Assembly (NCBI RefSeq): GCF_053078305.1
Contig: NZ_CP166879.1
Direction: 5' to 3' (one strand)
DNA: 64,000 bases
Below are positions 17,448 through 59,100 of the stretch, in pieces. A program made the translations under genes and the position numbers. The first letter of the stretch is position 1; every line of letters starts with the position of its first letter. The notes below the pieces were generated by a model, which was given only the letters and a program-made list of their open reading frames with translations, made no database searches and had not been told where the DNA came from.

Positions 17448-18259
17448 TATGCCGCCTCCACCATGCCCGCTTTCGCCATGCGCGCTTTCACCCAATCACG
17501 CGCTTTCGCCACTTCTGCCGCCGGGTCTTCCGCCGTTTCGCTCCACATCTCAATCAGGTACGGCCCGCAATAGCCACTCTGTTTGAGCGTTTCGAAACAA
17601 CGTTCGAAATCCACTACACCTTCGCCAAACGGCACGTTTTTGAAGACGCCAGGTTTGGTGTCTTTCACATGTACCGCGACGATATGCCCGATTCCGGCCT
17701 GCAACTCCATCTGCACATCGTTGTCCCACGCCGACAGGTTGCCGATATCCGGGTAGAGCTGGAACCACGGATTGTTGAGATAGTGCGCGTAGCCCAGCGC
17801 CTTGCTGATGGAGTTCATCAACGGATAATCCATGATCTCCATCGCCAGCGTCACCTGCGCGCGGCTCGCCATCTCAACGCTCTCTTTCAGGCCGTCACGG
17901 AAACGACGACGCGTTTCGTTATTGGCTTCCTGATAATAAACGTCATAGCCCGCCAGCTGGATCACGCGAATACCAACGTCCTGGGCGAACTGGATAGCTT
18001 TACGCATAATCTCCAGCCCCTGCGCCCGCACCGCGTCATCTTCGCTACCCAGTGGGAAACGACGATGAGCAGAAAGGCACATGGACGGCACGCGCACGCC
18101 GGTTTCAACAATCGCATTGACCAGCGCCAGACGCTGCTCGCGGCTCCAGTCGAGGCGCGACAGGCGCTCGTCCGTTTCATCTACCGACATCTCGACAAAA
18201 TCGAAGCCCAACGTTTTTGCCAGTTGCAGGCGTTCCAGCCAGCACTCCCCAGCGGGGAG
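17447..18259 (-). pseudogene. ulaE: L-ribulose-5-phosphate 3-epimerase UlaE, 5'-truncated (first ~14 codons and start missing)
   Basis: Frame matches UlaE from ...[24 protein letters not shown] onward; upstream the frame hits a stop and island sequence begins. Confidence 0.85.
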
Positions 18260-18436: not shown

Positions 18437-19618
18437 ATGCCACTTACTGTTCGGCAAATTGAGTCGGCCAAACCTGCTGACAAGGATTACAAACTTTCTG
18501 ATGGTCAAGGACTTTACCTTCTTATCAAGAAATCTGGCGCTCGTTACTGGAATCTGAAGTATCGATTTGCGGGTAAAGAAAAGAAATTGGTGATTGGTGT
18601 CTATCCAGGTATATCACTGGCTCTGGCGCGTCAGAAACGGGATGAAGCACGTAAACTCCTCGCTGAAGGAAAAGATCCTTCATATGAAAAACAGGCAAGT
18701 AAACATGCACTAAGAGAAAGTATTGCATGCACATTTTGTACTCTTGCAGAAGAGTTGTTCACACATATGGCTTGTCGTTGGACTGCGGGTTATTTAGCGG
18801 ACCAGCGTGCAAGATTCGAGAATCATATTAATCCCATGCTAGGGAAACGTCCTGTGGCTGATATTCGCCCCTTGGAAATATTGAATGCACTGAGGGTTAT
18901 AGAAAAGAATGGCAAACTTGAAGCGTTACGTAAGACTCGTCAGCTCTGTTCTCAAATATTTGATTACGCCATTGCGACGGGGCGCGCCACTATTAACCCA
19001 GCATCGACTCTCAACAGTGTTGTTCTTCATCCAGAAAAACAGCAGAGACGGATGCTATCTGAAGAACAGTTAGGCGCTTTCATGTACCAAATGAAAGTTT
19101 CAGGCAATTTTATGTCTCTGGTAACGCAAATACTGGTTCTAACTGCTGTTAGAACGGGAGAATTACGCCTTGCTACTTGGGATGAAATTGATTTTACCAA
19201 TGCCTTATGGGTAATCCCAAAAGAGAGAATGAAAATGCGAAGGCCGCATGTTGTTCCACTTTCTCATCAGACTCAAATGTTATTGAAAGAGATAAAAATA
19301 ATCACAGCTCCCCGTAACTCCGAGCTGGTTATTCCTGGTGTATACAGAGATAATCAACCTCGTGGTCGCGGTTGCATCAACGAGTTTCTTCAACAAGTTG
19401 GCTGGCATACATTCACTACAGCTCATGGTTTTCGGCATACTTTCAGTACCATTCTCCATGACCATGATTTCAGCTCTGCCTGGATTGAACTCCAGCTTGC
19501 CCATGTTGATAAAAACATCATGCGCGGCACCTACAACCACGCACAGTATCTCGATGGTCGTCGTGAAATGATGCAATGGTACGCTGACTACATTGATTCA
19601 CTTTCTGAGCAGGCCTGA
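18437..19618 (+). CDS. int: P4-type (phage) tyrosine integrase
   Basis: 393-aa ORF; N-terminal DUF4102-like MPLTVRQIESAKP...KDYKLSDGQGLYL and C-terminal catalytic region (HGFRHT...Y). Confidence 0.9.
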   Translation: MPLTVRQIESAKPADKDYKLSDGQGLYLLIKKSGARYWNLKYRFAGKEKKLVIGVYPGISLALARQKRDEARKLLAEGKDPSYEKQASKHALRESIACTFCTLAEELFTHMACRWTAGYLADQRARFENHINPMLGKRPVADIRPLEILNALRVIEKNGKLEALRKTRQLCSQIFDYAIATGRATINPASTLNSVVLHPEKQQRRMLSEEQLGAFMYQMKVSGNFMSLVTQILVLTAVRTGELRLATWDEIDFTNALWVIPKERMKMRRPHVVPLSHQTQMLLKEIKIITAPRNSELVIPGVYRDNQPRGRGCINEFLQQVGWHTFTTAHGFRHTFSTILHDHDFSSAWIELQLAHVDKNIMRGTYNHAQYLDGRREMMQWYADYIDSLSEQA

Positions 19619-40826: not shown

Positions 40827-41525
40827 ATGGAAAACAGAGAGGAATTTCTCGTTGCGATCGCCAGAAAGCTTGGCAGACCAGTAAGACATATTCCCGAAGC
40901 AATGCCGGAGCCTGTAAATACGCTGGCTACGACACGTTTAACAGAGTTGACATCAGACCAACGCTGTGAGGCGTTTATTAAATTTGCCTCGGAAGTGATG
41001 CTTGCCGAGTGTGTTCTGGTGTCGCCTGAGAACGCACCATCAACAGCCTTAGACATCTGTTGGAAGTTCGGTTCCGGGCCAGTCATTATCAGCAACGATC
41101 AACGACTGGTCGATACAGGGATTACGCCATTGCTACAAAAAGAAATGGACGCTGCTCTGTGGGATCCGGAGAAGGGCGATGAAAATATCCATCTTGCTGA
41201 AAAGGCAAAAACTGGTGTCGTTTTCGCTGAGTATGGGCTGACAGAATCAGGAGGCATTGTCTTATTCTCCGCACCAGAACGTGGGCGCTCAGTAAGCCTT
41301 TTGCCTGAAGCATCATTATTTGTTTTACGTAAAAGCACCATTCTCCCCAGAGTGGCGCAGCTTGCGCAAAAACTTCATGATATGGCTCAGGAAGGACAAC
41401 GGATGCCGTCCTGTATAAATCTGATTGGAGGCCCAAGTTCTACTGCAGATATAGAACTGATCAAAGTTGTTGGCGTACATGGTCCTGTACATGCAACCTA
41501 TTTGATCATTGATGATTGCGATTAA
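40827..41525 (+). CDS. lutC: Lactate utilisation protein C (LutC/YkgG-like, LUD domain)
   Basis: 232-aa ORF immediately after lutB; operon context. Confidence 0.78.
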   Translation: MENREEFLVAIARKLGRPVRHIPEAMPEPVNTLATTRLTELTSDQRCEAFIKFASEVMLAECVLVSPENAPSTALDICWKFGSGPVIISNDQRLVDTGITPLLQKEMDAALWDPEKGDENIHLAEKAKTGVVFAEYGLTESGGIVLFSAPERGRSVSLLPEASLFVLRKSTILPRVAQLAQKLHDMAQEGQRMPSCINLIGGPSSTADIELIKVVGVHGPVHATYLIIDDCD

Positions 41526-41618
41526 CGATTGCTAATAAAAAAATGGCCTTAAGGTGATATTTCGTCTTGTGAAAAGGCAACAATAGACTAAAGGTTAGGC
41601 ATAATTGTGTTTCTTTAT

Positions 41619-41648
41619 GCCTCCGCAGCAATTTGTGGAGGCTTTTTT
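41619..41648 (+). terminator. Rho-independent terminator after lutC
   Basis: GCCTCCGCA...TGTGGAGGC hairpin followed by TTTTTT. Confidence 0.7.
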
Positions 41649-41728
41649 GCTTACTCCAAACAGTTTGGCTTCTTGAAAAAGTCATATCCCAAACCTATTG
41701 ACGCTTATAAAAAAGTAAAGAATGGTGA

Positions 41729-41957
41729 GTAAGCGTAAACTGACCACCGTATGTAGCCATGATGCCAGTATTGGTAACGTAGGTGCACCCCTATCTATTT
41801 TTGTAGAACCGGAGGAAACAGACCAGATAGTTTAAATGAGCTGGTTATACGTAACATAATTGTAAGCGTAAACTGACCGCCGTATGTAGCCATCAGACGA
41901 AAATTGGTAACTTAGACGCCCATCTGATATAGACGGACATCTAAGTATGGAATTACA
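41729..41957. repeat. Two tandem solo copies of an IS66-family terminal inverted-repeat segment
   Basis: GTAAGCGTAAACTGACC(A/G)CCGTATGTAGCCAT at 41729 and 41863, near-identical to the end of the IS66 element at 53769-53798. Confidence 0.65.
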
Positions 41958-41985
41958 TGAACCGCCCCGGAAATCCTGGAGACAT

Positions 41986-42211
41986 CTGGCCACCCTGATT
42001 CCTTCCCGTAACAACTGACGCCAGACTTTACGCACATCGTATACGCACGGTATCTTTTTCTTCAGCCAGTCATCACGCTGCGCACGGGCATTGCGTTTAT
42101 CAGGATGATGTCGCTGTTGCTGACAGTGGTAATACGTTGACGGGGCAATATGCAGTTCACTGCATACCGGTCCGATCCCGTACTGCTCACGCGACTTATC
42201 CAGCAGTGGCA
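41986..42211 (-). pseudogene. IS629 OrfB, truncated after ~75 codons
   Basis: MPLLDK...HIAPSTYYHCQQQRHHPDKR matches IS629 OrfB N-terminus then runs into the terminal IR. Confidence 0.7.
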
Positions 42212-42538
42212 TTATTTTTTCCAGGGGCGGTCGAACTCCGCCTTCGCAAAATAAGTGGAAGCCTGGCGAAGGATATCGTTACTGCGGCTCAGTTCACGAT
42301 TTTCACGTTCCAGCTCTTTCAGACGCTGACGTTCAGTGGTGGTGAAACCACCATCACCGCCCCCAATATCCTGCTCATGCTGGAGTACCCAGACGTGCAG
42401 AGTCTCCGGTGTACAGCCAATCTTAGGGGCAATAGAACAAATTGCTGTCCATTGTGAGTCATATTCGCCCTGACTTTCCAGAACCATACGAACTGCCCGT
42501 TGACGGACTTCGGGGGAAAAACGTGTATTTTTAGTCAT
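42212..42538 (-). CDS. IS629 OrfA
   Basis: 108-aa ORF MTKNTRFSPEVRQRAVRMV... recognised as IS629/IS1203 OrfA. Confidence 0.85.
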   Translation of the reverse strand: MTKNTRFSPEVRQRAVRMVLESQGEYDSQWTAICSIAPKIGCTPETLHVWVLQHEQDIGGGDGGFTTTERQRLKELERENRELSRSNDILRQASTYFAKAEFDRPWKK

Positions 42539-42752
42539 CCTGTTTACCTCTTTCTCAGGGAGTTTAGTCTCCAGGATTTCCGGGGCGGTTTAACGTTTAT
42601 AACAACTCCGACCATTCAAAATGGCCGGCGGGGTATAAATCCCTATCAATTTAACATTATCTCATTTGACATGAATAACGCCGTTTATCTATTTGTTGCC
42701 CTTTAGCTAGTTCATAGCAACCTAGAAAAATTTATTCGTTGCAATATAAATG

Positions 42753-44300
42753 CTACTTGCGTAGCGATAAAATTGCCCGTGCGGTTTCAGCACGGTTATA
42801 GATCTGCATTTTTTTTATTGCAGCATCCACATCTTCACCGCTTTTCTTATTCAGTTTAATCAGAAACTCAACAGGTAATAGCGAAGCTAAATTTTCAAAT
42901 TTTGATTCAGACCAAGTAATGGTTGCAACAGCCCCTTCAGTTCTCTTAATCATTAGTTTTTTAAGTAATTCTAAACGCTCTGGCTCAACAGTTATATAAC
43001 CAATCGGCAGGGTTAATGCACTATCAGAATTAGGTTGACCGTGGTATTGCACCAAAGCAATCACATCAGGAATTAAGAGGATCTCCAAACGATCAAATTT
43101 AGCCTCTGAAGTAAGGCCAATACCGGTAGGAAAACGACCTAAGTGCCGCTTACGCTCTTGACGTTTTTCACCTTCATCTGCACTTGAGTGTAAAAGCGAA
43201 ATGCGAGCAATCTTATCATCGGCATAATTGCCAAGTATATCGCCTAGAGCGCGAGTAAAACGCGAAAGTTGACTACCATTAGCTCCCCACAGTGGTACTT
43301 TACTGCTATACCACAGCGCTTTTGGAGCTGTTTTACCTATATAATCACGTAATGCATTATGCAACATACTAATGAACAGCTTAGAATTGTGCGGCAAATA
43401 AACAGCCCCTAACATGCCGGTAGTCAATGAAGTACCGTAGCCAGTTTTACGTTGTTCACGAGCCTCTATCCAGCCGGAATAGTTGAACTTATAACCATTA
43501 GCAAATTGTAACAACACTTTATCATTTGCTAGTTTACAGAAATCTTCACAGTCGATACCGAATTCATCTAGTTTATGTTCTCCCAAAAAATCTGCGATAT
43601 GAGCTTCCAGCTCGTTTGAAAGCGGCAGCCGGGTGTTACCTAAATATTCATAGGAACGAGTAAATTTCTGCGGCTCAATGCTCCCAGCAGAAACACCGTA
43701 GCTAACCTCTATCTCTATTGGGAGCTGCACCATCTCATGCGAACTACAGCCCATTATCTTATATAATTTAGTCCGTTGACGCTCATACTCGCTGTTGCGG
43801 CTGAGCAAAAGATGGTGCCGAAACTGGGAACTAAAAGCCTCTGTTACCGCAGCAGCATCTCCCCCGATCTGATGCCGCGGCAATAGCTCTGGCAGTCCAG
43901 AAGTAAAACGACGATTTGGTTGCGGTTTACATATCGAAAGAGTTAGTAGATCGAATGCAACTTCCTCCGTACATTCTTGATATTTAACTAAACTTGGCTT
44001 CCCACCATTATTAGCTGCATGCTTACGTAGGAATGAGCTAGCCTCAATATGCCCATCAGGATTAATGTTGATCAGTCTGTTAGCCAGCAACCCATCAAGC
44101 AATACCTCTCGCTCACGATCAGTTAGACCAAAGTAATTCTGTAACTCGCTGGGATAGAGTTGATCAAAAATCAGCAGCAAGCGACATGCAAACTGTTCAA
44201 TTCCAGGCATCAGTTTTTCAGTGGTCAAAGCGCAGTTGATCTTGTAACTACGCGCAGGTAGTAAAACGGTAATCAGATTACCCAGACGTGGTTCTGACAT
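42753..44300 (-). CDS. Hypothetical 515-aa protein, translationally coupled partner of the NERD-kinase-helicase gene
   Basis: Long ORF with start ATG overlapping upstream TAA (TAATG); no recognisable motif by eye. Confidence 0.8.
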   Translation of the reverse strand: MSEPRLGNLITVLLPARSYKINCALTTEKLMPGIEQFACRLLLIFDQLYPSELQNYFGLTDREREVLLDGLLANRLININPDGHIEASSFLRKHAANNGGKPSLVKYQECTEEVAFDLLTLSICKPQPNRRFTSGLPELLPRHQIGGDAAAVTEAFSSQFRHHLLLSRNSEYERQRTKLYKIMGCSSHEMVQLPIEIEVSYGVSAGSIEPQKFTRSYEYLGNTRLPLSNELEAHIADFLGEHKLDEFGIDCEDFCKLANDKVLLQFANGYKFNYSGWIEAREQRKTGYGTSLTTGMLGAVYLPHNSKLFISMLHNALRDYIGKTAPKALWYSSKVPLWGANGSQLSRFTRALGDILGNYADDKIARISLLHSSADEGEKRQERKRHLGRFPTGIGLTSEAKFDRLEILLIPDVIALVQYHGQPNSDSALTLPIGYITVEPERLELLKKLMIKRTEGAVATITWSESKFENLASLLPVEFLIKLNKKSGEDVDAAIKKMQIYNRAETARAILSLRK

Positions 44301-47300
44301 TAGTTGTTATCTCCAAGCAGACTTTGACCACACAGGATTTGGTAGTTGGGTTCATCTACTGCAACCTGTTTACTAATAAATTCATGAACGTTTCCAAGTG
44401 CTGAATCATTATTGGTCTTTGACCACATACGCCTTGCTCCCAGAATCAATAACCTTTCTTGAGCTCGCGAAATAGCAACGTTTATTCGCGGCGCGTCGCG
44501 CAGGAAACCTTGTAGTTTGTTGGGATTATCGCGAACCAGACTGAGGATAATTATCTTGTTTTCCTGGCCCTGATATGAATCAACGGTATCGATCTTGATC
44601 AAACCACGTAACGATGCAGCCCATTCAGCCCGACTGATAGCATTGTCAATTTCCTCTTTTTGCTGACGATACATTGTGATTATACCAATAGGATATGGCT
44701 GTTCTGTGGTAATAGTTTGCTCAAGCTGTGCAATGCAGCCATCACTCGACAATGACTGCAAAGCCTCTAGCAGTAGCCGGACTTCTCGTTGATTATAGTA
44801 ACGACCATTACCCTTATGTTCTTCTGCACCTGCTTCATTAGGGCTCGAACTATCGATCCAAGTAACAGTTTTGTTCCAAGGGATTGGTAACTTGGAATAC
44901 CAATCTGGCGAGACTTTCCTCGATGAATGCAGTTTACCGATATCTTGAGCGTAAAAGCACTCCGATACTAACTCGCCAATTGGTTCTACCATTCGATATT
45001 GAGTATCGAGTGTTACGCCGCCTGTTGCTTTAAAAGCACGTTCAAAATCAGACTCATAAAAGATCCCTTTCCCGAGTTCTAATTTCTTAGAGGCTAACTT
45101 AAGATGCTGTTGATGATAGAATGGTGGCAATTGTTTATGATCCCCTACCAACAGCACCCGCTTGCCTGATTGCAGCGCTACCATCAATTCAGCAGCTTGT
45201 GCTCGGCCAGCCTCATCAACTATTACCCAATCAAAGCTGGACTCAGCTAGTTCTAGTCGACGATTCCCAACACCAACAAGAGTTCCACAAACCAATCGCT
45301 TACTTTTGAACATAAATCGATCAAATCCAGCCTCGCCGCCGCGTAATACATCCATCCACTCTTGGCTCATTTCCAATAGCTGCATAAAACGTTCAAGGTT
45401 CTCTGGATTGTTATAATTGTATTGTATGGCAACTTGCTCAGCCAACTGTCTTATCAAGGTTTCATCATAGACAAGAGTTTTCAGCAAGCTGTCATCGAAT
45501 ATTGAGTTAATAATTTCTTGTGTTCGCAGTTTAAGCTGATTGCTTTGTTCTAATAATTCAGCCAGTCGCTCTTGATGACTAATACTACTACTCTTTATTT
45601 GTTCTACTTTATCCAGCTCACGGCTATATTGGCCATATGTCACCATCAAGGGATTCAGCGTACGATGTAACTGACATAACTGTTGGACTAATAATGGGGC
45701 CATCCCTAGGCGCTTTCCTAGGGAGCTAACTCGCAGATCATATTCACGGTGAAATTTATGCTGAATCTGTCGCTGAAGAGCTTTAGTTGCAACACTTAGC
45801 ATACCCTCATCAATCATAAGTTCATTACCAATACGTACTGTATCCAGTTCCATTCCTTTCGTATGGCAGAGCTCTCGAGCCTTGATGGCTACATTATCAA
45901 CAGAGGCATGGGATTGCCCGACCAAAAGAATGTTATTCACACCGCAATGTTGATACAGATAGTGAATAAATTTTGAAATAAATGTTGTTTTACCTGTTCC
46001 AGGTGGTCCCTGCAGAACTCCAACTGGTCCAAACTCGACCAACTGTTGAAATGCCATTAGCTGCTGTTCATTAAAACGTTGTCCAGGCTGATCATAAAGT
46101 GCGCGTAATGTCTCCGCGGATGGCCGCGGTTGCATTTGCTGCATGCAGGGTTTCTGGTGGTAATCAAAATACTGTGGCAGATGCTGGATCTCTGCTTTGT
46201 TTTCAATTACCCGTTGAAGGGCTCTTTGACGCAACTCTCTTGATGATTTGTCACGGATCGATTCCAATTGTAGCTGGCTGCCGCTACTAATTCGCTTACG
46301 AGCAGCATCAAAATCAAAGCGAATAGCCAATAGACTCGGCGTAGTCTCACTTAGCTGCAATTCCCCTAATTGCACTGATTCACGCTTATCTTTAATATAA
46401 ACAATGATCTTATCATCAAGTTCAAAGCTGAGGTCAGCACCGGATTCCGTAGTATATGGGTAGAGTAAGCAACCACTCGGTGATTCCTGAAAGTCAGTAG
46501 AGTCGATGTTGACTATATCTCGTAGGTCTACTTCTGTATCAGATAATGCCTGCCATAACTCAATTGGGCTTGACTCACTACTATCGAAGTCATCTTCATC
46601 CATCTCTTGATTAGGATTAGCTCGCTCAATGATGGCATCAATTACTGGCTCGAGGTTAAACAGTAGTTCAATAAAAGTATTACGCTGATTAAGTGAGCCA
46701 CGTTGTAATGAAAGTTGAGTATTAATTTTAGCCTGGGAATATTTACCAGCCTTTATACTTTCTTCGATCGATAATCCTTTTTCATACACTATTCTATTAA
46801 TAGTGCGATTATCAGGATCTAAGTCTATCAATAGCCGCTCTCCTAGGCCAGTGATGTAACAACGCAATTCATGCGCAAAGCGTGGGTTAGATGACCAGTT
46901 ACATTGAAAATAATAGATCCCATCATTTTGTTCTAGAAGCTTCACTTCTTGCGGCCAATCATCTGTGCCCCAGCAAACAGGAATTACCTTATCCTGTGAC
47001 TCAGACGCCACAACTTGATTAATCTCAGCTTGTTCCGGTGCTCGAATTGACTGCAGCAAAGGATCGAGCGCGATAGGTATACCGTCAACGGTTTGTTTTG
47101 CGCGTTCTAGCTCAGCCTGCACCAGTACTGGCATATCTTCACTAAATAGCTCCTCCACCATACGATATACTGCAAAGCAATCTCGCCCAAAAGCATCAGT
47201 ACTTTCGGGATTCTCTGGCTGGTAGCGATTATCTGCAGTTAATTCATCACTGAATTCAAGCAATCCAATCAGAGTAATTACTGTCTGCTCCCCGACTTGT

Positions 47301-49258
47301 ACCAGCAGTTTCTCTGGGCAAAGATCTCCATGAGGTAACTGCTTTTCATGAAAAGCATGAATGGTGTTGATCAACTTTTCCGCAATTGTAAAACGTTGGG
47401 ATTGTACTAACACGTTCTCAGCAATAAACTGTGACCACGGTAGGCCATCCACATACTCGCTCACTACATACAAGCCGCCTTGTCCTAATAGTCCATAGGA
47501 CTGCACCTTAGGAGTTGGCAGATTTATATGCGTAAGCTTATCGATCCGTTGCTTAAAAGCGTGGATACGGCGGTTAACACCAGGTTGTTGAGGGGTCAAA
47601 ATAACACCATCCCACAATTTTACCTGCAGAGCTTTCCCACCTTGTTCACAGTGATAACTGATGCTGCCAGTCGTAGCAATAGCAGCAAGAGCAGAGTAAA
47701 CCATAGACAACTGTTCAGGAAGTGGAGGAAACTCAATTAACACACCAACGCTGTTCATCCCTTCGCGAAAGAATTTGTTTTGCTTTAATTCTTGATAAAT
47801 CTGGTTAGCTTCATCAAATTCTTGGCTATGTTCCTTAGTAGCTGCATTAAACTCATTGAGCATTATGTCCGCACGTGGAAAGCGTTTACTTGGCTCAAGG
47901 TTAAGAGCTTGCTCAAACCAGCTATTTAGAATACCGCTAAAAGGATCAGTTAATGGAGCTCTCCATTCAGGCATCTGTCCAGGAGTCAGTAATGATTCAC
48001 CTGCAAAACAAATACGATAAGCAATTACAGCCAACATGAATACATCTAGGCGATAGGGCTCAACTGCTTCTTCAAAAGCATCTTCGGGCAAAATATATGG
48101 AGCACTTTGCAATGTCGGACGCAATGACTCTAGGCTATTATGTCCCTCCAGTGAGGCTGCGCCAAAGCCAGTAACGACAATGCTCTTCTGATCCCCTGCG
48201 TACCATAGATTGTGCGGGTCAATATCACAATGACTGATACCCAAGCTATGTAATTCCGAGAATGGAGCTAATAATGCACGAACGCGATCAATACGCTCAG
48301 ATTTACTCCATCCGTCAGCTTCGCTATCTAGAATCTCATCTAATCGGCTAAAACTACGGCGTAACTCATACAGCTCACGGGCATCATCAGTTATATCCTC
48401 CTCGGATAGTTCCCTTACAGCACGCAACATATAATCCTGCATAGTTGCGCTGCCATGACGAACTAGGCGACCGACTCGAGTCTCACGCAGAGCTATCTCA
48501 GCCCACAATGTTTGCATTGCGTTTGCTACACCCAAGGCATCAAAGTTCCACTGCCGTAGCAGACCTCTGTGTTGACTATTGTCTTTGTGGGTAGCCCTGA
48601 ATTCGTTGTAGACCATGTGAGGGTGACTAAAGAATGGCTTATCGTTCGCAAGATAACCGCTTTCTTTTAGTGGCAAAGGCCTGACTTTTGGTCCTTCAAA
48701 GAAGGACTTAATTATAGGTAATGCCTCATCAGAATTTGGTCGAGGCTTTCCCCCTTCAAAAAGATGAAAAAAGTTAGTGTGTTGCACCAGCTTTTCGTAA
48801 TTTTTTGGGTTACCTATAGTCAAGAATTCATCACGGGTATGAACATAGCGCCTCTCACTTAATGGCAAGTTTTCAGGACCAGCTGTGCCACACAGCACTA
48901 CATGAGCCTCAACATGCAAAAAGTAACCCAGCTTACGAGATAACTCTTCCTGCAACAAATCTTTTAGTCGCAGTGCATGCTCACGCTTGATCTGATAGGG
49001 ACTTTTGCCTCGTGACTTACCATTTTGCAGCCACTTCCCCCCTTCAAATGTGATGTTACCATTCCACTCTTTAAGCTCGACTAATAGCAGACGGTCAGCA
49101 GTAATAATTAGCATATCGATTTCCATCGACCCTTGGCTATCAGTAACAACTAAGCCAGCATAGCCAAACCAACTATCTGGTAACTGCTTAACCATCATAT
49201 CAACTGTTTTGGTTTCGCTGCGGTGCAGGCCAGCACCACCTACTATCTGATACTTCAC
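44300..49258 (-). CDS. 1652-aa multidomain protein: N-terminal NERD-like nuclease domain, two protein-kinase-like domains, C-terminal SF1 (Upf1/DNA2-like) helicase
   Basis: NERD-like D...ELK region (aa ~45-65); kinase catalytic-loop-like HCDIDPHN (aa 343-350) and HGDLCPEK (aa 643-650); Walker A GPPGTGKTT (aa ~1084), Walker B VIVDEAG, SF1 motif TVDSYQGQE. Confidence 0.85.
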   Translation of the reverse strand: MKYQIVGGAGLHRSETKTVDMMVKQLPDSWFGYAGLVVTDSQGSMEIDMLIITADRLLLVELKEWNGNITFEGGKWLQNGKSRGKSPYQIKREHALRLKDLLQEELSRKLGYFLHVEAHVVLCGTAGPENLPLSERRYVHTRDEFLTIGNPKNYEKLVQHTNFFHLFEGGKPRPNSDEALPIIKSFFEGPKVRPLPLKESGYLANDKPFFSHPHMVYNEFRATHKDNSQHRGLLRQWNFDALGVANAMQTLWAEIALRETRVGRLVRHGSATMQDYMLRAVRELSEEDITDDARELYELRRSFSRLDEILDSEADGWSKSERIDRVRALLAPFSELHSLGISHCDIDPHNLWYAGDQKSIVVTGFGAASLEGHNSLESLRPTLQSAPYILPEDAFEEAVEPYRLDVFMLAVIAYRICFAGESLLTPGQMPEWRAPLTDPFSGILNSWFEQALNLEPSKRFPRADIMLNEFNAATKEHSQEFDEANQIYQELKQNKFFREGMNSVGVLIEFPPLPEQLSMVYSALAAIATTGSISYHCEQGGKALQVKLWDGVILTPQQPGVNRRIHAFKQRIDKLTHINLPTPKVQSYGLLGQGGLYVVSEYVDGLPWSQFIAENVLVQSQRFTIAEKLINTIHAFHEKQLPHGDLCPEKLLVQVGEQTVITLIGLLEFSDELTADNRYQPENPESTDAFGRDCFAVYRMVEELFSEDMPVLVQAELERAKQTVDGIPIALDPLLQSIRAPEQAEINQVVASESQDKVIPVCWGTDDWPQEVKLLEQNDGIYYFQCNWSSNPRFAHELRCYITGLGERLLIDLDPDNRTINRIVYEKGLSIEESIKAGKYSQAKINTQLSLQRGSLNQRNTFIELLFNLEPVIDAIIERANPNQEMDEDDFDSSESSPIELWQALSDTEVDLRDIVNIDSTDFQESPSGCLLYPYTTESGADLSFELDDKIIVYIKDKRESVQLGELQLSETTPSLLAIRFDFDAARKRISSGSQLQLESIRDKSSRELRQRALQRVIENKAEIQHLPQYFDYHQKPCMQQMQPRPSAETLRALYDQPGQRFNEQQLMAFQQLVEFGPVGVLQGPPGTGKTTFISKFIHYLYQHCGVNNILLVGQSHASVDNVAIKARELCHTKGMELDTVRIGNELMIDEGMLSVATKALQRQIQHKFHREYDLRVSSLGKRLGMAPLLVQQLCQLHRTLNPLMVTYGQYSRELDKVEQIKSSSISHQERLAELLEQSNQLKLRTQEIINSIFDDSLLKTLVYDETLIRQLAEQVAIQYNYNNPENLERFMQLLEMSQEWMDVLRGGEAGFDRFMFKSKRLVCGTLVGVGNRRLELAESSFDWVIVDEAGRAQAAELMVALQSGKRVLLVGDHKQLPPFYHQQHLKLASKKLELGKGIFYESDFERAFKATGGVTLDTQYRMVEPIGELVSECFYAQDIGKLHSSRKVSPDWYSKLPIPWNKTVTWIDSSSPNEAGAEEHKGNGRYYNQREVRLLLEALQSLSSDGCIAQLEQTITTEQPYPIGIITMYRQQKEEIDNAISRAEWAASLRGLIKIDTVDSYQGQENKIIILSLVRDNPNKLQGFLRDAPRINVAISRAQERLLILGARRMWSKTNNDSALGNVHEFISKQVAVDEPNYQILCGQSLLGDNN

Positions 49259-49468
49259 GTTTTCTCCTGCACCACTAAATTTTTGTTGGTGGTAGTCCAG
49301 TAAAAATGGATGTAGTTATCTAAGACAGCGCATAGATTGTGCCTGCCTAACCCTAAAAAGTGTAATTATGAAAAGTAACGCTAGAAATTCTATACCGTTC
49401 GCAAAGAGAACACTTTTCAAAGATATATCATCATCTTGAACATGTCACTATAATGGTGAATCCATAAG

Positions 49469-49630
49469 ATGCGAACACCACATCTTGTGCCACTCAGCAA
49501 ACAGGCTGTAGCCATACTGATAAAACTTCAGACATGGGCAGTTGAAAATGGTCTGGTCTTTACGGGAGCACATGACCCGCGTAAACCAATCAGCGAAAAC
49601 ACCGTAAATAAGGCCCTTAGGTGCCCTTGA
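49469..49630 (+). pseudogene. Phage-type integrase fragment (internal ~53 codons only)
   Basis: MRTPHLVPLSKQAVAILIKLQ...GLVFTGAHDPRKPISENTVNKALR resembles the central region of P4-type integrases (compare intact int at 18437). Confidence 0.5.
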
Positions 49631-49725
49631 ACCACTATATCCAGACAGCCGTTGAGCTTAAGTTAACGTTACCGAGTGACGTTGATATTCCCTCGGTGAG
49701 AGATAACCAAGGCACCATGAGGATG

Positions 49726-50353
49726 CTATTCGTTATAGTGTTCGAACGCCTCCGCAAGGTTTTTTACTGCCGTTAACACGTCCGGTTTAGGTATGATACT
49801 GATGTAATCGCTCTTCATCGTTTTCACGAACCGTTCTCTCATTCCATTACTCTGAGGGCTACTGACTGCCGTCGTGCAGAGCTCCAGATTCAACTCTCTG
49901 GCGAACTGCCGTGTTTCATGAGTTGTATAAGCCGAACCGTTATCGGTCAGCCACTGGATGGGCCATCCCGGTCTATCGCCAAAGCGTTTTTCTATCGCTC
50001 CTGACATGACATCCTGCACCGTTGCTTTGCCATAACCTCCCGTGCTTGCGGCCCAGTCTATGGATTCAAGATCGCAACAGTCCAGTGCGAACGTGACACG
50101 CAGTTTTTCGTCATCATCACAACCGAACTCAAAGCCATCGGCACACCAGCGCGGGTCGCTTTCCTTCACCGATATTCGGGCCTTTATGTTCCCTCTGCGG
50201 TCGTGAAGGTTTGTCATGTAATAACAACAGGTTATTCTCGCTCATTATTCGATAAACGCGATTTGCATTCACGAACTGCAGTCCTTCGTTAAGACTGCCG
50301 TCTGAGAATAGCCCAGACACGACGATAGCCATCGAATCGCTGAACAGCGTCAT
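49726..50353 (-). pseudogene. IS2-like (IS3 family) transposase OrfB remnant, frameshifted
   Basis: ORFs 49726-50217 and 50129-50353 together resemble IS2 InsD (NANRVYRIM..., [34 protein letters not shown]) in two frames. Confidence 0.6.
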
Positions 50354-50459
50354 TCGGCAGGCGATAAAGAAGGTGTCGTTACGGGGAAGTCATCTTCACA
50401 GAGATTTTCAGTCAGTTAGCATTACCGACATTCATTCACCAACTTACCGGAGATAATCA

Positions 50460-50789
50460 ATGTCAAAACCCCGATGGACCATTGAACAGAAAAGGCAGCA
50501 CGTTGCTGCCTGGCGCGCCAGTGGTCTTACACGTCAGCAATACTGTGAACTCAACGATATTCCCTTCACATCACTTCGCGAATGGCCGCAGGATGTCGCA
50601 AAAGCTGAACGCCGGGCAAATGAACCGACCGTTCTTCCCGTTCATATTGCGCCACCACTGCATGCTGATGTACCACAGCCCGTCACGAATGAGCCAGTCA
50701 CGCTCTTCCTTCCCGGCGGAGTACGGATGTGCTGTCAGCCGTCACAACTTACCGATGTCTTCAGGGCGCTCAAATATGCTCAGTCCTGA
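50460..50789 (+). CDS. IS66-family TnpA (orf1) of outer element
   Basis: 109-aa ORF followed by overlapping tnpB and tnpC in the canonical IS66 order. Confidence 0.7.
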   Translation: MSKPRWTIEQKRQHVAAWRASGLTRQQYCELNDIPFTSLREWPQDVAKAERRANEPTVLPVHIAPPLHADVPQPVTNEPVTLFLPGGVRMCCQPSQLTDVFRALKYAQS

Positions 50790-51168
50790 TAATGTCTTCA
50801 TCGCGATTAAACCTGTTGACATGCGCCGGGGCATCGACACACTGACGCAGTATATACAGGATGAACTCCGGTCGACATGGCATGAGGGAGCCGCCTTCGT
50901 CTTTGTTAACAAAGTCCGTTCGCGTATCAAAGTTCTCCGGTGGGATAAACACGGGGTGTGGTTGTGTACCCGCCGTCTGCACAAAGGCAGCTTCCGCTGG
51001 CCACGTGCAAATGATGCTGCCTGGCACCTCACTCCCGACGAGTTTAACTGGCTGATTGCCGGTGTTGACTGGCAGCAGGTTAAGGGACATGACCTGACGA
51101 AATGGGGCTGGCAGAATGAACCTGAACTGCGCCCTGAAAACACGCAAAATACACTGCTAACTCAGTGA
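50776..51168 (+). CDS. IS66-family TnpB (orf2) of outer element
   Basis: ORF 50482-51168; start set at MLSPDNVFIAIKPVDMRRG, paralogous to the TnpB at 52940-53290. Confidence 0.7.
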   Translation: MLSPDNVFIAIKPVDMRRGIDTLTQYIQDELRSTWHEGAAFVFVNKVRSRIKVLRWDKHGVWLCTRRLHKGSFRWPRANDAAWHLTPDEFNWLIAGVDWQQVKGHDLTKWGWQNEPELRPENTQNTLLTQ

Positions 51169-51174
51169 AAAATA

Positions 51175-51265
51175 ATGAATATCCGTATCCGGAGTGGTAT
51201 ACTCCCCTGTATGGATATCTCCGCTCTCAACACCACGAATGACATCGAAAAACTGCGTGCTATGG
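51175..51265 (+). pseudogene. IS66-family tnpC of outer element, 5' part (interrupted by nested IS66 insertion)
   Basis: ATG at 51175; reading frame continues exactly across the insertion into 53807-55320 when one copy of the 8-bp duplication is removed. Confidence 0.7.
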
Positions 51266-51295
51266 GTAAGCGTCAACGGAGCACCGTATTGACGC

Positions 51296-52909
51296 TTATT
51301 TATTGGTGAGTACTACGTTCCATGGCAGGAGTTCATCAACTCGGTTGGAAGGCCATTCTGGCAGTACGCTCAGGATATGGCGCAGATACGCTTCCGGATC
51401 GATACCGTTCAGACGGCAGGTGCCGATCAGCCCGTACAACAGTGCTCCACGCTCGCCGCCGTGATCGCTGCCAAAGAACATAAAGTTTTTCTTTCCGAGA
51501 CAGACTGCACGAAGCGCTCTTTCCGCAGCATTATTATCCGCCTCCGCCAGACCGTCATCACTGTAATAACAGAGGGCATCCCACTGATTCAGTACATAGC
51601 TGAACGCTTCGCCCAGTCTGGATTTTTTCGACAGCGTACCATTCTTCTCCACCATCCATTCATGCAGTGACGTCAGTAACACTTTGCTTCGCTGCTGCCT
51701 GACGGCAAGACGCTCTGACTCCGGTAATCCCCGTATTTCATCCTCGATGGCGTACAGTTCACTGATTCGCTTCAGGGCTTCTTCTGCCGTCGCACTTTTG
51801 CTGCTGATGTATACATCGTGGATTTTTCGCCGGGCATGGGCCCAGCACGCAACTTCTGTCAGTGCACCACCTTCACGTTCTGCACTGAACAGCCGATCGT
51901 AACCGCTGAACGCATCCGCCTGCAGGATACCCCGGAAGGGACGAAGGTGTTGTACCGGATGTTTTCCCTGCCTGTCTGGTGAGTAGGCGAACCAGACCGC
52001 CGGTGGCTCTGATGAGCCCGCATTCCGGTCATCCCGGACATACGTCCAGATGCGTCCTGTTTTTGCCTTTTTTCTGCCCGCTGCCAGCACTTTTACTGGT
52101 GTGTCGTCAGTGTGAACCTTGCGGGTGTTCATCACGTAACGGTACAGGGTATCATTCAGCAGAGTCATTAACTGACAACATGCGTCAACCCAGTTGGAGA
52201 GTAATGCCCGGCTCAGTTCGATGCCCTGGCGGGCAAAGATTTCACTCTGACGATACAGTGGCAGGTGTTCGCAGTATTTTCCCGTTAACACGCGGGCAAG
52301 TAATCCGGAGCCCGCGATGCCGCGCTCTATCGGGCGGGACGGCGCTGGCGCTTCAACTATACAGTCACATTTTGTACAGGCTTTTTTTACCCGAACAGTG
52401 CGGATCACTTTCAGGGCGCTACTCACCAGTTCCAGCTGCTCAGCACTGACTTCCCCCAGATAATCCAGCTCACTGCCACACTCCGGGCAACAACTTTCTT
52501 CAGGCTCCAGACGGTGTATTTCACGGGGAAGATGTGCCGGTAACGGACGACGATGACGTGACTGTCGCAACTGGCGGGGAACCTGCGGGTCATCCTCACG
52601 CCCACTGTAACGATCGCTTTCCTGTTCGCGTTGTTTCAGTTGGGCCTCAGCCTGTTCAACCTCACGCTGCAGTTTTTCAGAACGGGTACCGAACAACATC
52701 CGGCGCAGTTTTTCTATCTGGGCCCTCAGATGTTCTATTTCCCGCTCCTCCTCTTCGATCTTTTCCTCGGCACGTGCCAGTGCAGAGCGCAGGAAGGCCT
52801 CCGTCTCTTCAACCAGACTCAGTTGCTGATCTTTCTGACGGAGGGCTTCAGCCTGCTCAGAGAGCAGCCTTTCCAGCTCAGTGATACGAATGAGGTATTT
52901 CCGACTCAT
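51296..52909 (-). CDS. IS66-family transposase TnpC
   Basis: 537-aa ORF with N-terminal coiled-coil, CPECG zinc-finger-like motif and DDE region. Confidence 0.9.
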   Translation of the reverse strand: MSRKYLIRITELERLLSEQAEALRQKDQQLSLVEETEAFLRSALARAEEKIEEEEREIEHLRAQIEKLRRMLFGTRSEKLQREVEQAEAQLKQREQESDRYSGREDDPQVPRQLRQSRHRRPLPAHLPREIHRLEPEESCCPECGSELDYLGEVSAEQLELVSSALKVIRTVRVKKACTKCDCIVEAPAPSRPIERGIAGSGLLARVLTGKYCEHLPLYRQSEIFARQGIELSRALLSNWVDACCQLMTLLNDTLYRYVMNTRKVHTDDTPVKVLAAGRKKAKTGRIWTYVRDDRNAGSSEPPAVWFAYSPDRQGKHPVQHLRPFRGILQADAFSGYDRLFSAEREGGALTEVACWAHARRKIHDVYISSKSATAEEALKRISELYAIEDEIRGLPESERLAVRQQRSKVLLTSLHEWMVEKNGTLSKKSRLGEAFSYVLNQWDALCYYSDDGLAEADNNAAERALRAVCLGKKNFMFFGSDHGGERGALLYGLIGTCRLNGIDPEAYLRHILSVLPEWPSNRVDELLPWNVVLTNK

Positions 52910-52939
52910 GACCGTTTTTATAATCCGGCCATGACATTT

Positions 52940-53290
52940 TTACAACATTGTCAGTGCATTAAGGCGGGATGTTTTGGGCTGACGCCAGTCCAGTTTATCG
53001 AGGAGCATTGCCAGCTGCGAGCGGGTAATGGATACCTTACCGTCACGCACCGCAGGCCAGATAAACTGGCCTTCCTCCAGACGTTTGGTGAACAGGCACA
53101 GACCATCAGCATCAGCCCACAGAATTTTAATCGTGTCACCCCGTCGGCCGCGAAAGATAAACAGGTGACCGGAGAAGGGGTTCTCATCCAGCACATGTTG
53201 TACCTGTTCTCCCAGACCGTTGAAGGATTTACGCATATCAGTAACGCCGGCAACCAGCCAGATTCGAGTGCCTGATGGGAGCGAGATCAT
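52940..53290 (-). CDS. IS66-family TnpB (orf2)
   Basis: 116-aa ORF MISLPSGTRIWLVAGVTDMRKSFNGL..., typical IS66 orf2. Confidence 0.88.
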   Translation of the reverse strand: MISLPSGTRIWLVAGVTDMRKSFNGLGEQVQHVLDENPFSGHLFIFRGRRGDTIKILWADADGLCLFTKRLEEGQFIWPAVRDGKVSITRSQLAMLLDKLDWRQPKTSRLNALTML

Positions 53291-53712
53291 CGTCCCCTCC
53301 CGGTCAGTTCACGGATCAACACCGTGAGCAGCTCTGGTGAAGGATTTTCCAGCGTCATGTTACCGTGGCGGAACTCAACTTTACAGGAACTGGCACTGAC
53401 TGTGCTTTGTGAAGGAGTGGATAAAAGCGGAGTAAGAGCCGCCACAGGCTCTTTCTGCTCATCAGGCGTTATCTCAACAGGTAATAATTCAACGCCAGCG
53501 CCAGAAGAGGTTGTTACCGGAAGACGCCGCGATATACGCCCTTCGTTCTGCCAGAGCCTGAGCCATTTGAACAGGAGGTTATCATTGATATCGTGTTCCC
53601 GGGCAATACGGGCAACAGAGGCTCCTGGTTGTGAAGCCAGTTTAACCATTTGAAGTTTAAACTCATTTGAAAATGATCTGCGGGGTTCTGAGGATAATAT
53701 TTTCTGTTCCAT
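53287..53712 (-). CDS. IS66-family TnpA (orf1)
   Basis: 141-aa ORF overlapping tnpB start by 4 nt. Confidence 0.85.
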   Translation of the reverse strand: MEQKILSSEPRRSFSNEFKLQMVKLASQPGASVARIAREHDINDNLLFKWLRLWQNEGRISRRLPVTTSSGAGVELLPVEITPDEQKEPVAALTPLLSTPSQSTVSASSCKVEFRHGNMTLENPSPELLTVLIRELTGRGR

Positions 53713-53798
53713 AACAGGTGTCCACTAGTTGAAAAGGTGGGCACCTACGTTACCAATACTGGCTTAATGGCTACATACGGCGGTCAGTTTACGCTTAC

Positions 53799-55320
53799 TG
53801 CTATGGCACTTACCATGGTACAAAAAGTCATGTCGGAGAATGCCGAAAAAGAGCGGGAATTACTGGAGAAAAGCCGGCGCATCCAGCTTCTGGAAGAAAT
53901 GCTGAAACTGGTTCGTCAACAGCGCTTCGGTAAAAAATGTGAAACGCTGGCTGGTATGCAACGCTCCCTGTTCGAAGAGGATGTTGATGTCGATATCGCC
54001 GCGCTTACCGCACATCTGGATAAACTGCTCCCGCAATCCCCTGAAGAAGACGAAAAAGCGTCCCGTTCACGCCCGATACGCAAACCCTTACCGGCTCATC
54101 TTCCACGGGTGGAAAAAATTATCCAGCCGGACACTGACCATTGCCCTGAATGTGACGAGCCGCTGCACTATATCCGTGATGCGGTGAGTGAAAAGCTGGA
54201 GTATATTCCCGTTCACTTCGTGGTGAACCGTTATGTCCGTCCGCAATACAGTTGTCCCTGTTGCCAGAAGGTGTTCAGCGGTGAAATGCCGGCACATATC
54301 CTCCCGAAAAGTGCCGTTGAGCCATCAGTCATCGCACAGGTGATCATCAATAAATACGGTGACCACCTGCCTCTGTATCGCCAGCAGCACATTTTCTCCC
54401 GAATGGGGGTGGAGCTCCCCGTCAGTACAATGGCGGATAGGGTCGGTGTTGCTGGCGCTGCACTGGCCCCGCTGGCAAAATTGTTACGCCACGAGCTTCT
54501 GACACGGGATGTTATTCATGCCGATGAAACGTCCCTGAGGCTCCCTGATACCCGGAAAGGCGGTAAATCCTGCTCCGGCTGGCTGTGGGCTTACGTCAGC
54601 GGAGAAAGAAGCAGTCCGCCGGTCGTCTGTTTTGACTCGCAGACCGGACGGGCCCTCAGATATCCTGAGGCCTGGCTGCAGGGCTGGTGTGGCGGTACGC
54701 TGGTGAGTGACGGATACAGCGTGTACAAATCTCTGGCGGATAATGACCCCGGTATTACATCTGCCTGTTGCTGGAGCCACGCAAGGCGCGGTTTCGCAAA
54801 TCTGTATAAGGCCAGCAGGGAGCCCCGTGCAGCCATGGCGCTGAGAAAAATCGCGGGTCTTTATCGCATTGAGAAGTTCATCCGTGAACGTCCTGTGGAA
54901 AAAATACGGCAATGGCGACAACGGTATTCCCGGCCGATAGTGAATGACCTGTTTGCCTGGCCTGAAGAGCAGGAGCCGTGCTGTCCGCCCGACGGACCAC
55001 TAAACAAAGCGATTAATTATATCCTGAACCGGCGCGATGAACTGAGCTGCTTCCTGAGTGACGGAGCCGTGCCCCTGGACAACAATATCTGCGAGCGTGC
55101 TATCCGCCCGGTCGTTATGGGACGAAAGGCCTGGTTGTTCGCCGGTTCACTGATGGCCGGAAACCGCGCGGCACAGATAATGAGCCTTCTGGAAACGGCA
55201 AAACGTAATGGTCTGGAGCCACATGCCTGGCTGACAGACGTCCTGGCGCGTCTGCCGGAATGGCCAGAGGAGCGACTGGCAGAGTTGCTGCCTCTTGAGG
55301 GATTTACCTTCTCCGGGTGA
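53799..55320 (+). pseudogene. IS66-family tnpC of outer element, 3' part
   Basis: ORF 53737-55320 in frame with 51175-51265 across the nested insertion; CPECDEP zinc-finger-like motif and DDE region. Confidence 0.75.
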
Positions 55321-55921: not shown

Positions 55922-56197
55922 CTATTTTTTATCTTCTTTTCTTTCTTGTAACTTTGCTTTTATCCAAATACCAATCCCTGCTAACATACCAGCCCCTCCC
56001 CCCACCTTTAAAGAATAAATAATATCTGCCCTCCAATCAAAAAATAAAACTTGAGTTTTAGAAAAAACTATCAGTCTACCAAGAATAGTACCTAACATTG
56101 CCATAAAAAAGATGCAAGCTATGCAGCGCATTATTAGTATGATAAGAATGTAAAAGTTGACACTCTTATTTATTTTTAATGGATTTATCAGCTTCAT
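55922..56197 (-). CDS. cdiI: Putative CdiI immunity protein (small polytopic membrane protein)
   Basis: 91-aa hydrophobic ORF immediately downstream of and overlapping the cdiA 3' end; start may be an internal Met. Confidence 0.6.
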   Translation of the reverse strand: MKLINPLKINKSVNFYILIILIMRCIACIFFMAMLGTILGRLIVFSKTQVLFFDWRADIIYSLKVGGGAGMLAGIGIWIKAKLQERKEDKK

Positions 56198-59100
56198 CTA
56201 GTGTTCCTTTTGTTACATTCCCGATAGCTTCACCAGTAATTGTTCCCCCAATATTACCAATAATATCAGATGTTCCCTCTTTGACAGTAGAGCCCATTGA
56301 CCCCGAGATGACTTTCCCTATACCGCCACCAAATACTGAACCTAATCCTGTCCCAATAACTGAATTTGTCGGATCCTCGCCTTTAATACTACTACCAATT
56401 GCCGCGCCGCTCATGTTGATAGGAGTTGAGACGATGATGCCTTTACCGGTTGTAGCTGCAGCTGTCACCCCAGCCATTATCGCATCCACATAACTGAAAG
56501 GACCTTTTCCAGCAAGCTGAGCAGCTGAGTTTACGCTGATACCAATTGCTGCATTAGTCGCCATACCTTTCACTGTTAACCCCAGTACGCTTCCTCCAAA
56601 CAACAAAGGAGCATCACCAATACTTGCATTAGATTTATGATACCCCCAGGTATTCATAATGCTTTGAGCCTTTGCCATTGCTTCAGTATCAGGGTTACGT
56701 TTTATATAGTCCTGTCCTGACAGTAACCCGGTAACAAGCTCCTGTGCCACCGCTGTACCGTACTCCTTTTCCATTTCTGAAGCATATACACGCAAGTAAG
56801 CTGCCAGTTCAGCACGTTCTGCGCTGTTTAATTGTGAAGGATCTTTATTAAATTTGGATACCAGAGCATCACTACGTTTATCTGCATTTTCCAGCTTAAT
56901 CAGCTCATTAGCAGTGGCTAATGTCTTATCGCCGTTCCTGATTTTCTCAATGGCTTTATCCAGTTTGTCAGAAGATGTCGCTCCCAGAAAGTTATTCTCA
57001 ACAGTCGTCTTACCTGACTGTGCGCCGGCTACCGCTGAAGCCCCCGAGTTGCCCACCAGACCACCGGCCAGGCCGGCAGCAACCGTTGCCAGTGTCGAGA
57101 CCGTCTGCTTCTCTGTCTCGCTCAGTTCACTCACCGGCTTACCGTACATCTGTGTGGCTATCATTCCCACCACCTCGCCGGTGGCAGCCCCTGCGGCACC
57201 GGCAAGGGCATTATTTCCCTGTGCCACCGCCAGCGCGGCATTCACAACCGCATGGGCGGCCACACGCCCCGCACCGTCCGGGGTGTTATTTTTGATTATT
57301 TCTGCAATGTACGGCGCAGCACCACCTGCCAGGGCTGCACTCAGATTACCACCGGCCAGTCCCTGTACCGCTGCCGTTGCAGCCTGTATCGCCTGCTGGT
57401 ATTTGCCTCCCGTTCCAAAACCGGAGGCTGCCATACCGTTATTGTAGGCCCGCTGTGCCACATCCTGTTCCGTGAACGGTTTTCCTGCTGCCTCAAGCTC
57501 CGCACGGGCCTGATTCAGTGCTGCCGGGTCCCGCTTCGCTTTCTCACCGGCTATCTGTCCTTCCGTTCTGGCAATATCTGCCACCTGGTTACCAATCTCA
57601 CCAATGAGTTGCGCCTGCTGCAGTCGCTGCTGCTCTTTTTCCCTGTCAAAGATGGGGGACAGCGTCTGATTTGCATGTGCTGCGTCACGGTTCAGGTCTG
57701 CCACATCCTGTTTCTGGCTCTGCGTATCCCGGATGGTGATATTCCCGGCAGACACTGCCGACTGCGTGGTACTGTCCGCATGGCCTTCATGATTTGCACC
57801 GACCAGCAGATTGTTTGCCATGTTCCCCAGGAAATTTCCAGCAACACTGCCACCGGTACTGAGCCCTGTACTCTGATGTTCCGTTTTAAAGTCGGCCCGG
57901 TTTTCAATGTCACTGAAGCCCAGTGTGCCGGTATCCAGCCTGTTTTTATCTGCCGTTGCCGTGGACGCAATCACCGCACCGTTCAGTTGCGTATGCTGTC
58001 CGGTGGTGACATCAAACCCGCCCCTGCCGGCAAAAATCCCCGTCTGCTCCTGTACACTGTCGTAGTTACTGTGCATTTTATCCCGGCTGAGGTTCACACT
58101 CGCCGAACCGCTCATGGACCCGAAAATGAAGCTGCCTCCGGCGCTGGCATTCTGCTGCTTACTGTCATAACGGTCACTGTCCTGCTCACTGGTCAGTGTC
58201 AGATGACGACCGGCATCCACTTTCACCGTTTCACCGCCAGCCTGCGCGCCGGTAAGCGTGGTGTCCCGCCCGCTGATAATGGTCAGCCGGTTTCCCGCAT
58301 CCACCGTGGTTTCTGTATGGGTGGTACCGTTGCCTTTTTCACTGCCCTTACCCTGGTTTGCGCTGGCTGAAACACTGATACCCCAGCCTCCGGAGCCCAC
58401 ACCAACACCGACACCCACGCTGCCACCACTGGATGTGTTCTTTCCTTCCAGCTTTGACGTGTTTTCTGCTGATACCAGATTCACGTCACGGTTTGCCTGC
58501 AGCAGAACGTTGTTCCCGGCCTTTATCTGACTGCCCTGTATCGTCAGGTCACCATCCACGCCCTTCACGCCGGAGCCGGTGGCCTGAATACTGAGGTTAT
58601 TACCTGCGGTCAGTGTACTGCCCTTCGCCACCGTCTGCTCTGACTGCTGTTCTGATTTCGAAGACTGGCTGCCGTAAGAGAGGCTGATGCCCACCGTGTT
58701 ATTATTTCCGGCATCGGCTCCCTGCGCGTCTGCCAGTCGTCCGGCCTGCACGGCCTGAGCCCCCGAGAGCGCGGCCTTCACCCCCTGCAGGGCTTCAAGC
58801 CGGCTGTTTCCGGCAGATTTCGCCGCCTGTACGGTCTCCACCGTCGTATTCAGGGCGCTGCCCGCTGTGCCGGACAGGGCAAGCGTCAGACCGGAGGTTT
58901 TCTGCTCCACCGTATGTGTCTGTACATGCTGGTCTGTGGCGGCGGTAATGCTGACCTCCTTACCGCTGAGTGCCATGTCCCTGCCGGCAATCAGGTCAGA
59001 GCCGTTGACGGTCAACCGGTTACCTGCCTGAAGGGAAACATCACCGTGAACACTCCCCACCGTGCTGCCTTTCTGTGTGGTGTCTGTTGCGGTGTCCGTG

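Follow-up and report, generated by a model that had tools for sequence, protein, structure and literature searches.

In the 64,000-nucleotide stretch of E. coli chromosome analysed here (the window), the large gene mkoA is preceded by fragments of an integrase and of a transposase. The locus raises the question of whether these fragments are the remains of the element that delivered mkoA and its partner gene mkoB, as was implied by a preliminary description that saw the two-gene module as cargo of a since-eroded integrative element.

The Mokosh type I module and its island

The module, earlier listed as a candidate defence module, is assigned by its sequence to the known Mokosh type I anti-phage system (Table 1). 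PADLOC profiles matched both MkoA (PDLC03921, E = 0 over 2–1642) and MkoB (PDLC03923, E 1.1e-61). Pfam detected in MkoA an N-terminal NERD domain, a Pkinase domain (E 4.5e-9) and AAA_11 together with AAA_12 (E 1e-45 to 1e-46); with an HxDxxPxN motif at 343 and a Walker A motif at 1084, the protein has the features of an Upf1-like helicase combined with a Ser/Thr kinase. Mokosh type I as published consists of two genes, in which MkoA carries a COG1112/Upf1-like helicase and a kinase and MkoB is expected to carry a PLD nuclease (Millman et al., 2022; bioRxiv 10.1101/2022.05.11.491447). The module resembles that system in its gene number, in the helicase and kinase of MkoA and in the strong PADLOC profile matches, and differs from it in the NERD domain of MkoA and in an MkoB that shows no PLD (HxK) motif. 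Nor was MkoB matched by any Pfam family, at thresholds up to E<=10, or by any PDB sequence. This mkoA lineage was absent from the phage and plasmid collections.

Table 1. Features of the window bearing on the origin of the sequence upstream of mkoA.
Feature	Position	Strand	Content or evidence
Intact 393-aa P4-type integrase, left edge of the whole island	18437..19618	+	37% to the integrase fragment
IS629/IS1203-like IS3-family remnant, 5' ~610 bp, plus a 33-bp inverted IS end	41951..42593	-	90% to IS1203
Mokosh type I cargo unit	42604..49465	-	mkoB 42753-44300, mkoA 44300-49258, 207-bp upstream region 49259-49465
CP4-57-type island backbone remnant, ~58 bp	49410..49467	+	AW1.7, ET776 and LR-33 alignment; matches upstream of GTPase genes
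Internal piece of a pheV-type P4-like tyrosine integrase	49466..49621	+	codons 277-328 of 421; blastn, blastp, PRK09692, PGAP
3' 53% of an IS3-family, IS2-group element (ISEc48-like)	49622..50332	-	Pfam, NCBIfam, DNA comparison
Internal piece (~40-56 bp) of an ISEc39-like IS256-family transposase gene	about 50317..50371/50372	+	94.6-96.4% identity
Outer IS66-family element, left part	50372..51265	+	tnpA 50460-50789, tnpB 50776-51168, start of tnpC
Complete IS682-family (IS66-family) element	51266..53798	-	nested in tnpC of the outer IS66-family element

From 18259 onward the window belongs to a large mosaic genomic island whose insertion site is the 5' end of ulaE; chromosomal homology stops at 18259, and an intact integrase lies 180 bp inside this edge. 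A tRNA scan of the window found none, and the island is not tRNA-adjacent here. The ulaE-integrase junction is common to 63 of 5,426 genomes. With the mosaic, tandemly accreted tRNA-Phe islands and with defence islands the locus shares an integrase head, variable cargo, IS-rich decay, defence cargo and a GTPase...YeeU-CbtA backbone; we noted no substantive difference from them, and the junctions are resolved here to the nucleotide.

The module was described at the outset as standing amid decayed mobile-element pieces on both sides, and it does. On one side is the reported IS629 remnant, the remnant proper spanning 41982–42593 and containing an ALIL pseudoknot (107 bits), besides which an Rfam scan of 40–57 kb returned nothing. 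This remnant forms the left edge (41983) of a block that is common to several strains. On the other side is the integrase and IS scar.

Composition of the scar upstream of mkoA

The integrase piece comprises 156 bp (52 codons), and its homology to pheV-type integrases ends sharply at 49466 and 49621. These integrases were matched at 94.9% identity by blastn (E 1e-69) and, over residues 277–328 of a 421-aa integrase, at 92% by blastp (E 1e-32); NCBIfam PRK09692 was matched over profile positions 276–326 (E 2.6e-5). Matching integrases with 92–95% DNA identity are found in 3,366 of 5,426 complete E. coli genomes, with the same two boundaries in every match, and the full-length counterpart adjoins the tRNA-Phe gene pheV. 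The internal fragment of a P4-type integrase reported near the large gene is thereby substantiated. The 53-codon ORF under which it had been noted (49469–49630) begins at the native Met278 and stops 9 nt inside the adjoining IS.

As to architecture, the full-length relative contains Arm-DNA-bind_3 (3–88), Phage_int_M (98–192) and Phage_integrase (211–383). The arm-binding and central (core-binding) domains are missing from the fragment. The fragment begins after the Arg of box I (before residue 277) and ends ahead of HGFR (HxxR) and the catalytic Tyr (...AAYIH region; both beyond residue 328), which leaves all three outside it; the region kept is that between the Lys hairpin and box II, so that of the catalytic parts the Lys-hairpin region alone is represented. 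For all its likeness to P4-type (CP4-57/pheV-island) integrases, the fragment, with 52 of 421 codons left, is a pseudogene piece rather than an integrase, and PGAP labels it 'tyrosine-type recombinase/integrase, missing N-terminus and C-terminus'. Neither the 3' part nor any further piece of this integrase was found in the window. A copy of the island's own 393-aa integrase was rejected as an explanation of the fragment at 37% identity.

The adjoining IS2-group remnant retains 711 bp of an element of ~1,330 bp. It contains a DDE rve domain (Pfam, E 4.3e-15) and matches NCBIfam PRK09409 'IS2 transposase TnpB' (E 2.2e-69) over profile positions 117–269, positions 81–116 falling in an upstream ORF in a different frame. 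Compared with an intact relative, it has suffered indels of -2, +1, -3, -1 and -1 and a TAG stop. OrfB codons ~81–301 are kept and the first ~80 are gone, together with OrfA, the orfA-orfB frameshift site and the left inverted repeat. At the other end the right inverted repeat survives; its first letters, TG at 49622, adjoin the integrase sequence without a gap (49621/49622), and this clean end indicates a true IS insertion after integrase codon 328. Searches for the other half of the element elsewhere in the window, and for an IS inside an otherwise intact integrase among the 5,426 complete E. coli genomes, found none.

The nearest named IS is ISEc48 (84–87% identity), and the best unnamed relative reaches 88.5%; annotated IS2 copies are matched at ~70% DNA identity, which is well short of near-identity. 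The remnant shares with the IS2 group of the IS3 family the rve domain, the TnpB profile match and an IS2-like right repeat starting with TG, but it is shortened, carries multiple lesions and stays under the level of identity usually taken for the same IS. The 'frameshifted IS2-like transposase' noted earlier is therefore apt as to the frameshifts and the IS2 group, and holds at the subgroup level only.

Between this remnant and the IS66-family element that follows we found an ISEc39-like piece that had been overlooked. A 16-bp imperfect microhomology (50317–50332) connects it with the IS3 remnant. The interval 49259–50353, described as integrase fragment and IS2-like pseudogene, has the content ascribed to it except in its final ~20–36 bp (50317/50333–50353), which belong to this IS256-family fragment.

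Sequence comparison confirmed the integrase and transposase pieces as real, with matches that lie far above chance. The 53-aa integrase ORF gave no Pfam match, the piece being so short, and this is the one observation in keeping with chance frames unrelated to integrases or transposases. We dismiss that reading, which had been named as what would undo the description, on the blastn and blastp matches to pheV integrases and the PRK09409 and rve matches given above.

On the mkoA side, the scar is preceded by a short stretch of island backbone. In CP4-57-type islands free of Mokosh (ET776, LR-33), sequence resembling positions 49410–49467 immediately precedes yfjP-family GTPase genes. The similarity breaks off inside the loop of a terminator-like hairpin, of which the left arm and the loop are kept in the window. 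The intact hairpin with its T-run (...GGYGAATCCATAAGGATTCRCC...) folds at -21.4 kcal/mol in AW1.7 (z -7) and at -17 kcal/mol in ET776 (z -4.8); in the window the hairpin is lost. At the junction between backbone and integrase, AAG is the sole sequence common to both parents, which points to an illegitimate, microhomology-mediated joining and not to an IS end.

Just 5' of yfjP-family GTPase genes in CP4-57-type islands we observed a conserved motif (ATATATCAT..TGAAC) and, after it, a strong hairpin with a T-run (window 49410–49467; loci L010, 13910–14014; L014, ~4000–4105; L015, ~4000–4100). Motif and hairpin may serve the island backbone in regulation or as a terminator; their left half alone survives in the window.

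A promoter-like site on the minus strand (49447–49475) was also observed, with a -35 TTCGCA (49475–49470) in the integrase fragment and a -10 TATAGT (49452–49447) in the native sequence 5' of mkoA; this is a match to consensus alone, at 9 of 12 positions, and five such matches occur in 1.4 kb where 2.4 are expected by chance. That the scar has gained a function here, the junction giving mkoA a new -35 and removing the backbone hairpin beside its promoter region, strikes us as very improbable. The corresponding place in AW1.7 reads GCGAAT, a poor -35, and the junction is kept at 99.9% in 68–69 genomes, but recent common ancestry of the entire block accounts for this conservation, the match is weak and no rarity by the above count, and a second candidate, GTGACA/TATCTT (49448–49420), lies entirely within the conserved upstream region.

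Relatives of the locus and the source of the integrase piece

Across isolates, mkoA of this type is present in 71 of 5,426 complete E. coli genomes, two AW1.7 assemblies included. The same mkoA-int junction occurs in 69 genomes and the entire scar, at 99.9% identity, in 68; both pseudogenes are already annotated by PGAP, with the same coordinates, in 68 RefSeq genomes. The conserved unit is the block 41983–51265, which is 99.9% identical and found in different islands, namely a pheV island (strain 222), a pheU island (Ec-FL1-1X) and the ulaE island (GPEC1176 and the window). Most likely this block travels between islands by homologous recombination through IS and int homology patches. The phage and plasmid records contained nothing comparable. 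The left island parts differ between these strains (pheV, pheU, ulaE) and so do not point to one original site.

The sole divergent E. coli copy of the module is that of AW1.7, with 95.8% nucleotide identity over exactly 42604–49465. It belongs to a CP4-57-type island with the order ssrA-int...Qat-MkoB-MkoA-GTPase-DUF932-antirestriction-RadC-YeeU-CbtA, in which the module sits between the Qat system and the GTPase...CbtA backbone and the integrase is at the island's far end. The cargo of AW1.7 is thus placed between the integrase end and the backbone, and the window keeps the 58-bp relic alone of the latter. Taken together, the AW1.7 arrangement and the relic indicate that the module once held the same position in the window's lineage, and they support the reading that it was once cargo of an integrative island. 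In this respect the earlier proposal of cargo on an eroded integrative element stands; the larger island is not fully eroded, though, as its intact 393-aa integrase is still in place at its left edge.

In AW1.7 the ssrA-island integrase gene has in turn been interrupted by a true copy of IS2 (locus L011, 39002–41579), an independent landing of an IS2-group element in a P4-type integrase gene.

Ec-FL1-1X (NZ_CP066836.1) has a left junction identical to the nucleotide and no IS, and its int extends from codon 277 to the stop. After the int stop comes a 1,171-aa type II Mokosh gene (MkoC), and this int-MkoC stretch and the pheV-int-MkoC head of KMS2005 share 99.95% identity. Heads of this kind, in which a type II Mokosh gene directly succeeds a pheV-type integrase (for example at L005, 3173–8156), are common: 714 of 5,426 complete E. 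coli genomes have one, the type strain ATCC 11775 among them. Because int runs to its stop and on into type II Mokosh in Ec-FL1-1X, we assign the piece to a neighbouring pheV-type island. Divergent Mokosh I and II systems with just the 5'-truncated integrase (435 nt) between them were observed in Ec-FL1-1X (locus L026, 22261–33375), inside a pheU island.

Against this continuation into the native 3' end and the cargo of a different, common head, and against the ssrA-type enzyme that AW1.7, the sole intact context, carries at its far island end (35% protein identity to the fragment), it appears improbable that the fragment is what remains of the integrase of the element that delivered the Mokosh module, eroded around its cargo. 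Such an origin would fit the fragment's position abutting the module's upstream region, and E. coli defence systems typically ride integrase-bearing islands at integration hotspots (Hochhauser et al., 2023; PMC10121019). The backbone end and int would also become neighbours in an excised circle, or in a tandem duplicate of one element, so that a deletion running from the backbone into int within a single element type is conceivable. The fragment lies, however, on the backbone side of the cargo. Judged from these alignments, the integrase piece is a putative in-situ relic of the integrase of a neighbouring pheV-type island and not of the carrier's, and the initial view of it as a trace of the module's carrier is not supported.

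In strain 222 the right-hand island module consists of int', AlpA/YfjJ/Gp2-type genes on the opposite strand and then GTPase...CbtA, and the fragment stands where the integrase of this module would be expected, in the matching orientation; an intact pheV integrase is located 37 kb to the left of the fragment.

Relative to the window fragment, the integrase allele of Ec-FL1-1X carries 11 differences, none of them in the first 55 bp, so that at least one homologous exchange must have taken place inside the fragment after the junction had formed. Ec-FL1-1X may accordingly have arisen by secondary recombination and be neither a true intermediate nor a direct ancestor. It is possible, if rather doubtful, that the truncated integrase acts as a passive docking handle by which host homologous recombination puts the Mokosh I block into a resident island head, an idea that arises from its being identical over the first 55 bp, and 92–95% identical over the rest, to the pheV/pheU-type head integrase in ~60% of E. 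coli genomes. Entry of the Mokosh I block would then need no site-specific recombinase, and the allele switch in Ec-FL1-1X would be the trace of one such event, by which the two Mokosh systems came to stand back to back.

Assembly of the scar and its right flank

We consider it likely that 49466–50372 is a non-functional recombination scar of the composition int'/ISEc48-like'/ISEc39', with the following assembly history. Going by AW1.7 and the 58-bp relic, Mokosh I would at first have been the last cargo pair of a CP4-57-type island, 5' of the yfjP-type GTPase backbone. This island would have come to lie in tandem with, or to adjoin, a pheV-type island headed by int. The event at the AAG microhomology then fused the backbone hairpin loop to codon 277 of the neighbour's integrase, at the junction now observed, and would have deleted the backbone together with the attachment site and the 5' two-thirds of the integrase (its first 276 codons); Ec-FL1-1X would preserve this stage. 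For the deletion itself we rely on inference, since no undeleted Mokosh I-backbone-att-int tandem was found among the 5,426 complete E. coli genomes and the AW1.7 backbone lies at ssrA with no pheV-type integrase after it. An IS2-group element next entered the truncated integrase after codon 328, as its clean end records, and was subsequently cut through the 16-bp microhomology with the ISEc39 piece, which abuts the IS66-family element. With the integrase so reduced, and the transposase lacking OrfA and the left end and bearing frameshifts and a stop, nothing in 49466–50372 is predicted to encode a working product, and the fragments themselves appear to be without function.

The scar is ordinary, already-annotated mobile-element debris beside a known defence system, and beyond bookkeeping it is of little value except as a record of island assembly. 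It provides a small worked example, at the nucleotide level, of the fusion and decay of E. coli tRNA-Phe islands, in which three types of junction are represented: a hairpin-loop break at 3 bp of microhomology, a clean IS end, and two IS fragments joined across 16 bp of microhomology. An integrase relic beside a defence system need not be that of the integrase which delivered it, and here would be the neighbouring island's; this calls for caution in pipelines that attribute cargo to a mobile element through the nearest integrase gene.

To the right of the scar, the outer IS66-family element continues at 53799, and its tnpC extends to 55320. No left repeat of the GTAAGCG type was seen at 50372. 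The element nested in it has 24-nt terminal inverted repeats (GTAAGCG...) at 51266–51289 and 53775–53798 and an 8-bp target duplication, TGCTATGG. With Pfam matches to TnpB_IS66 and DDE_Tnp_IS66, this nested element possesses the tnpA-tnpB-tnpC genes, repeats and duplication of the IS66 family. Its insertion into the IS66 tnpC was a later event, visible in this window. A 527-aa ORF (53737–55320) is a chimera that starts inside the end of the nested IS682-type element.

Among the complete E. coli genomes of the collection, none covered >=80% of window positions 41000–64000, and GPEC1176 is identical over 41000–53584 only; the IS66 nest combined with the locus to its right appears to be specific to the source strain. 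At that locus (55922–63986, minus strand), a CdiA-type contact-dependent inhibition protein is encoded that extends beyond the window. The 2,606 aa that are visible include haemagglutinin repeats, PT-VENN (2285–2335) and a C-terminal region of ~270 aa with no Pfam match. An overlapping hydrophobic ORF of 91 aa (55922–56197) after the CdiA-type gene is a possible immunity gene.
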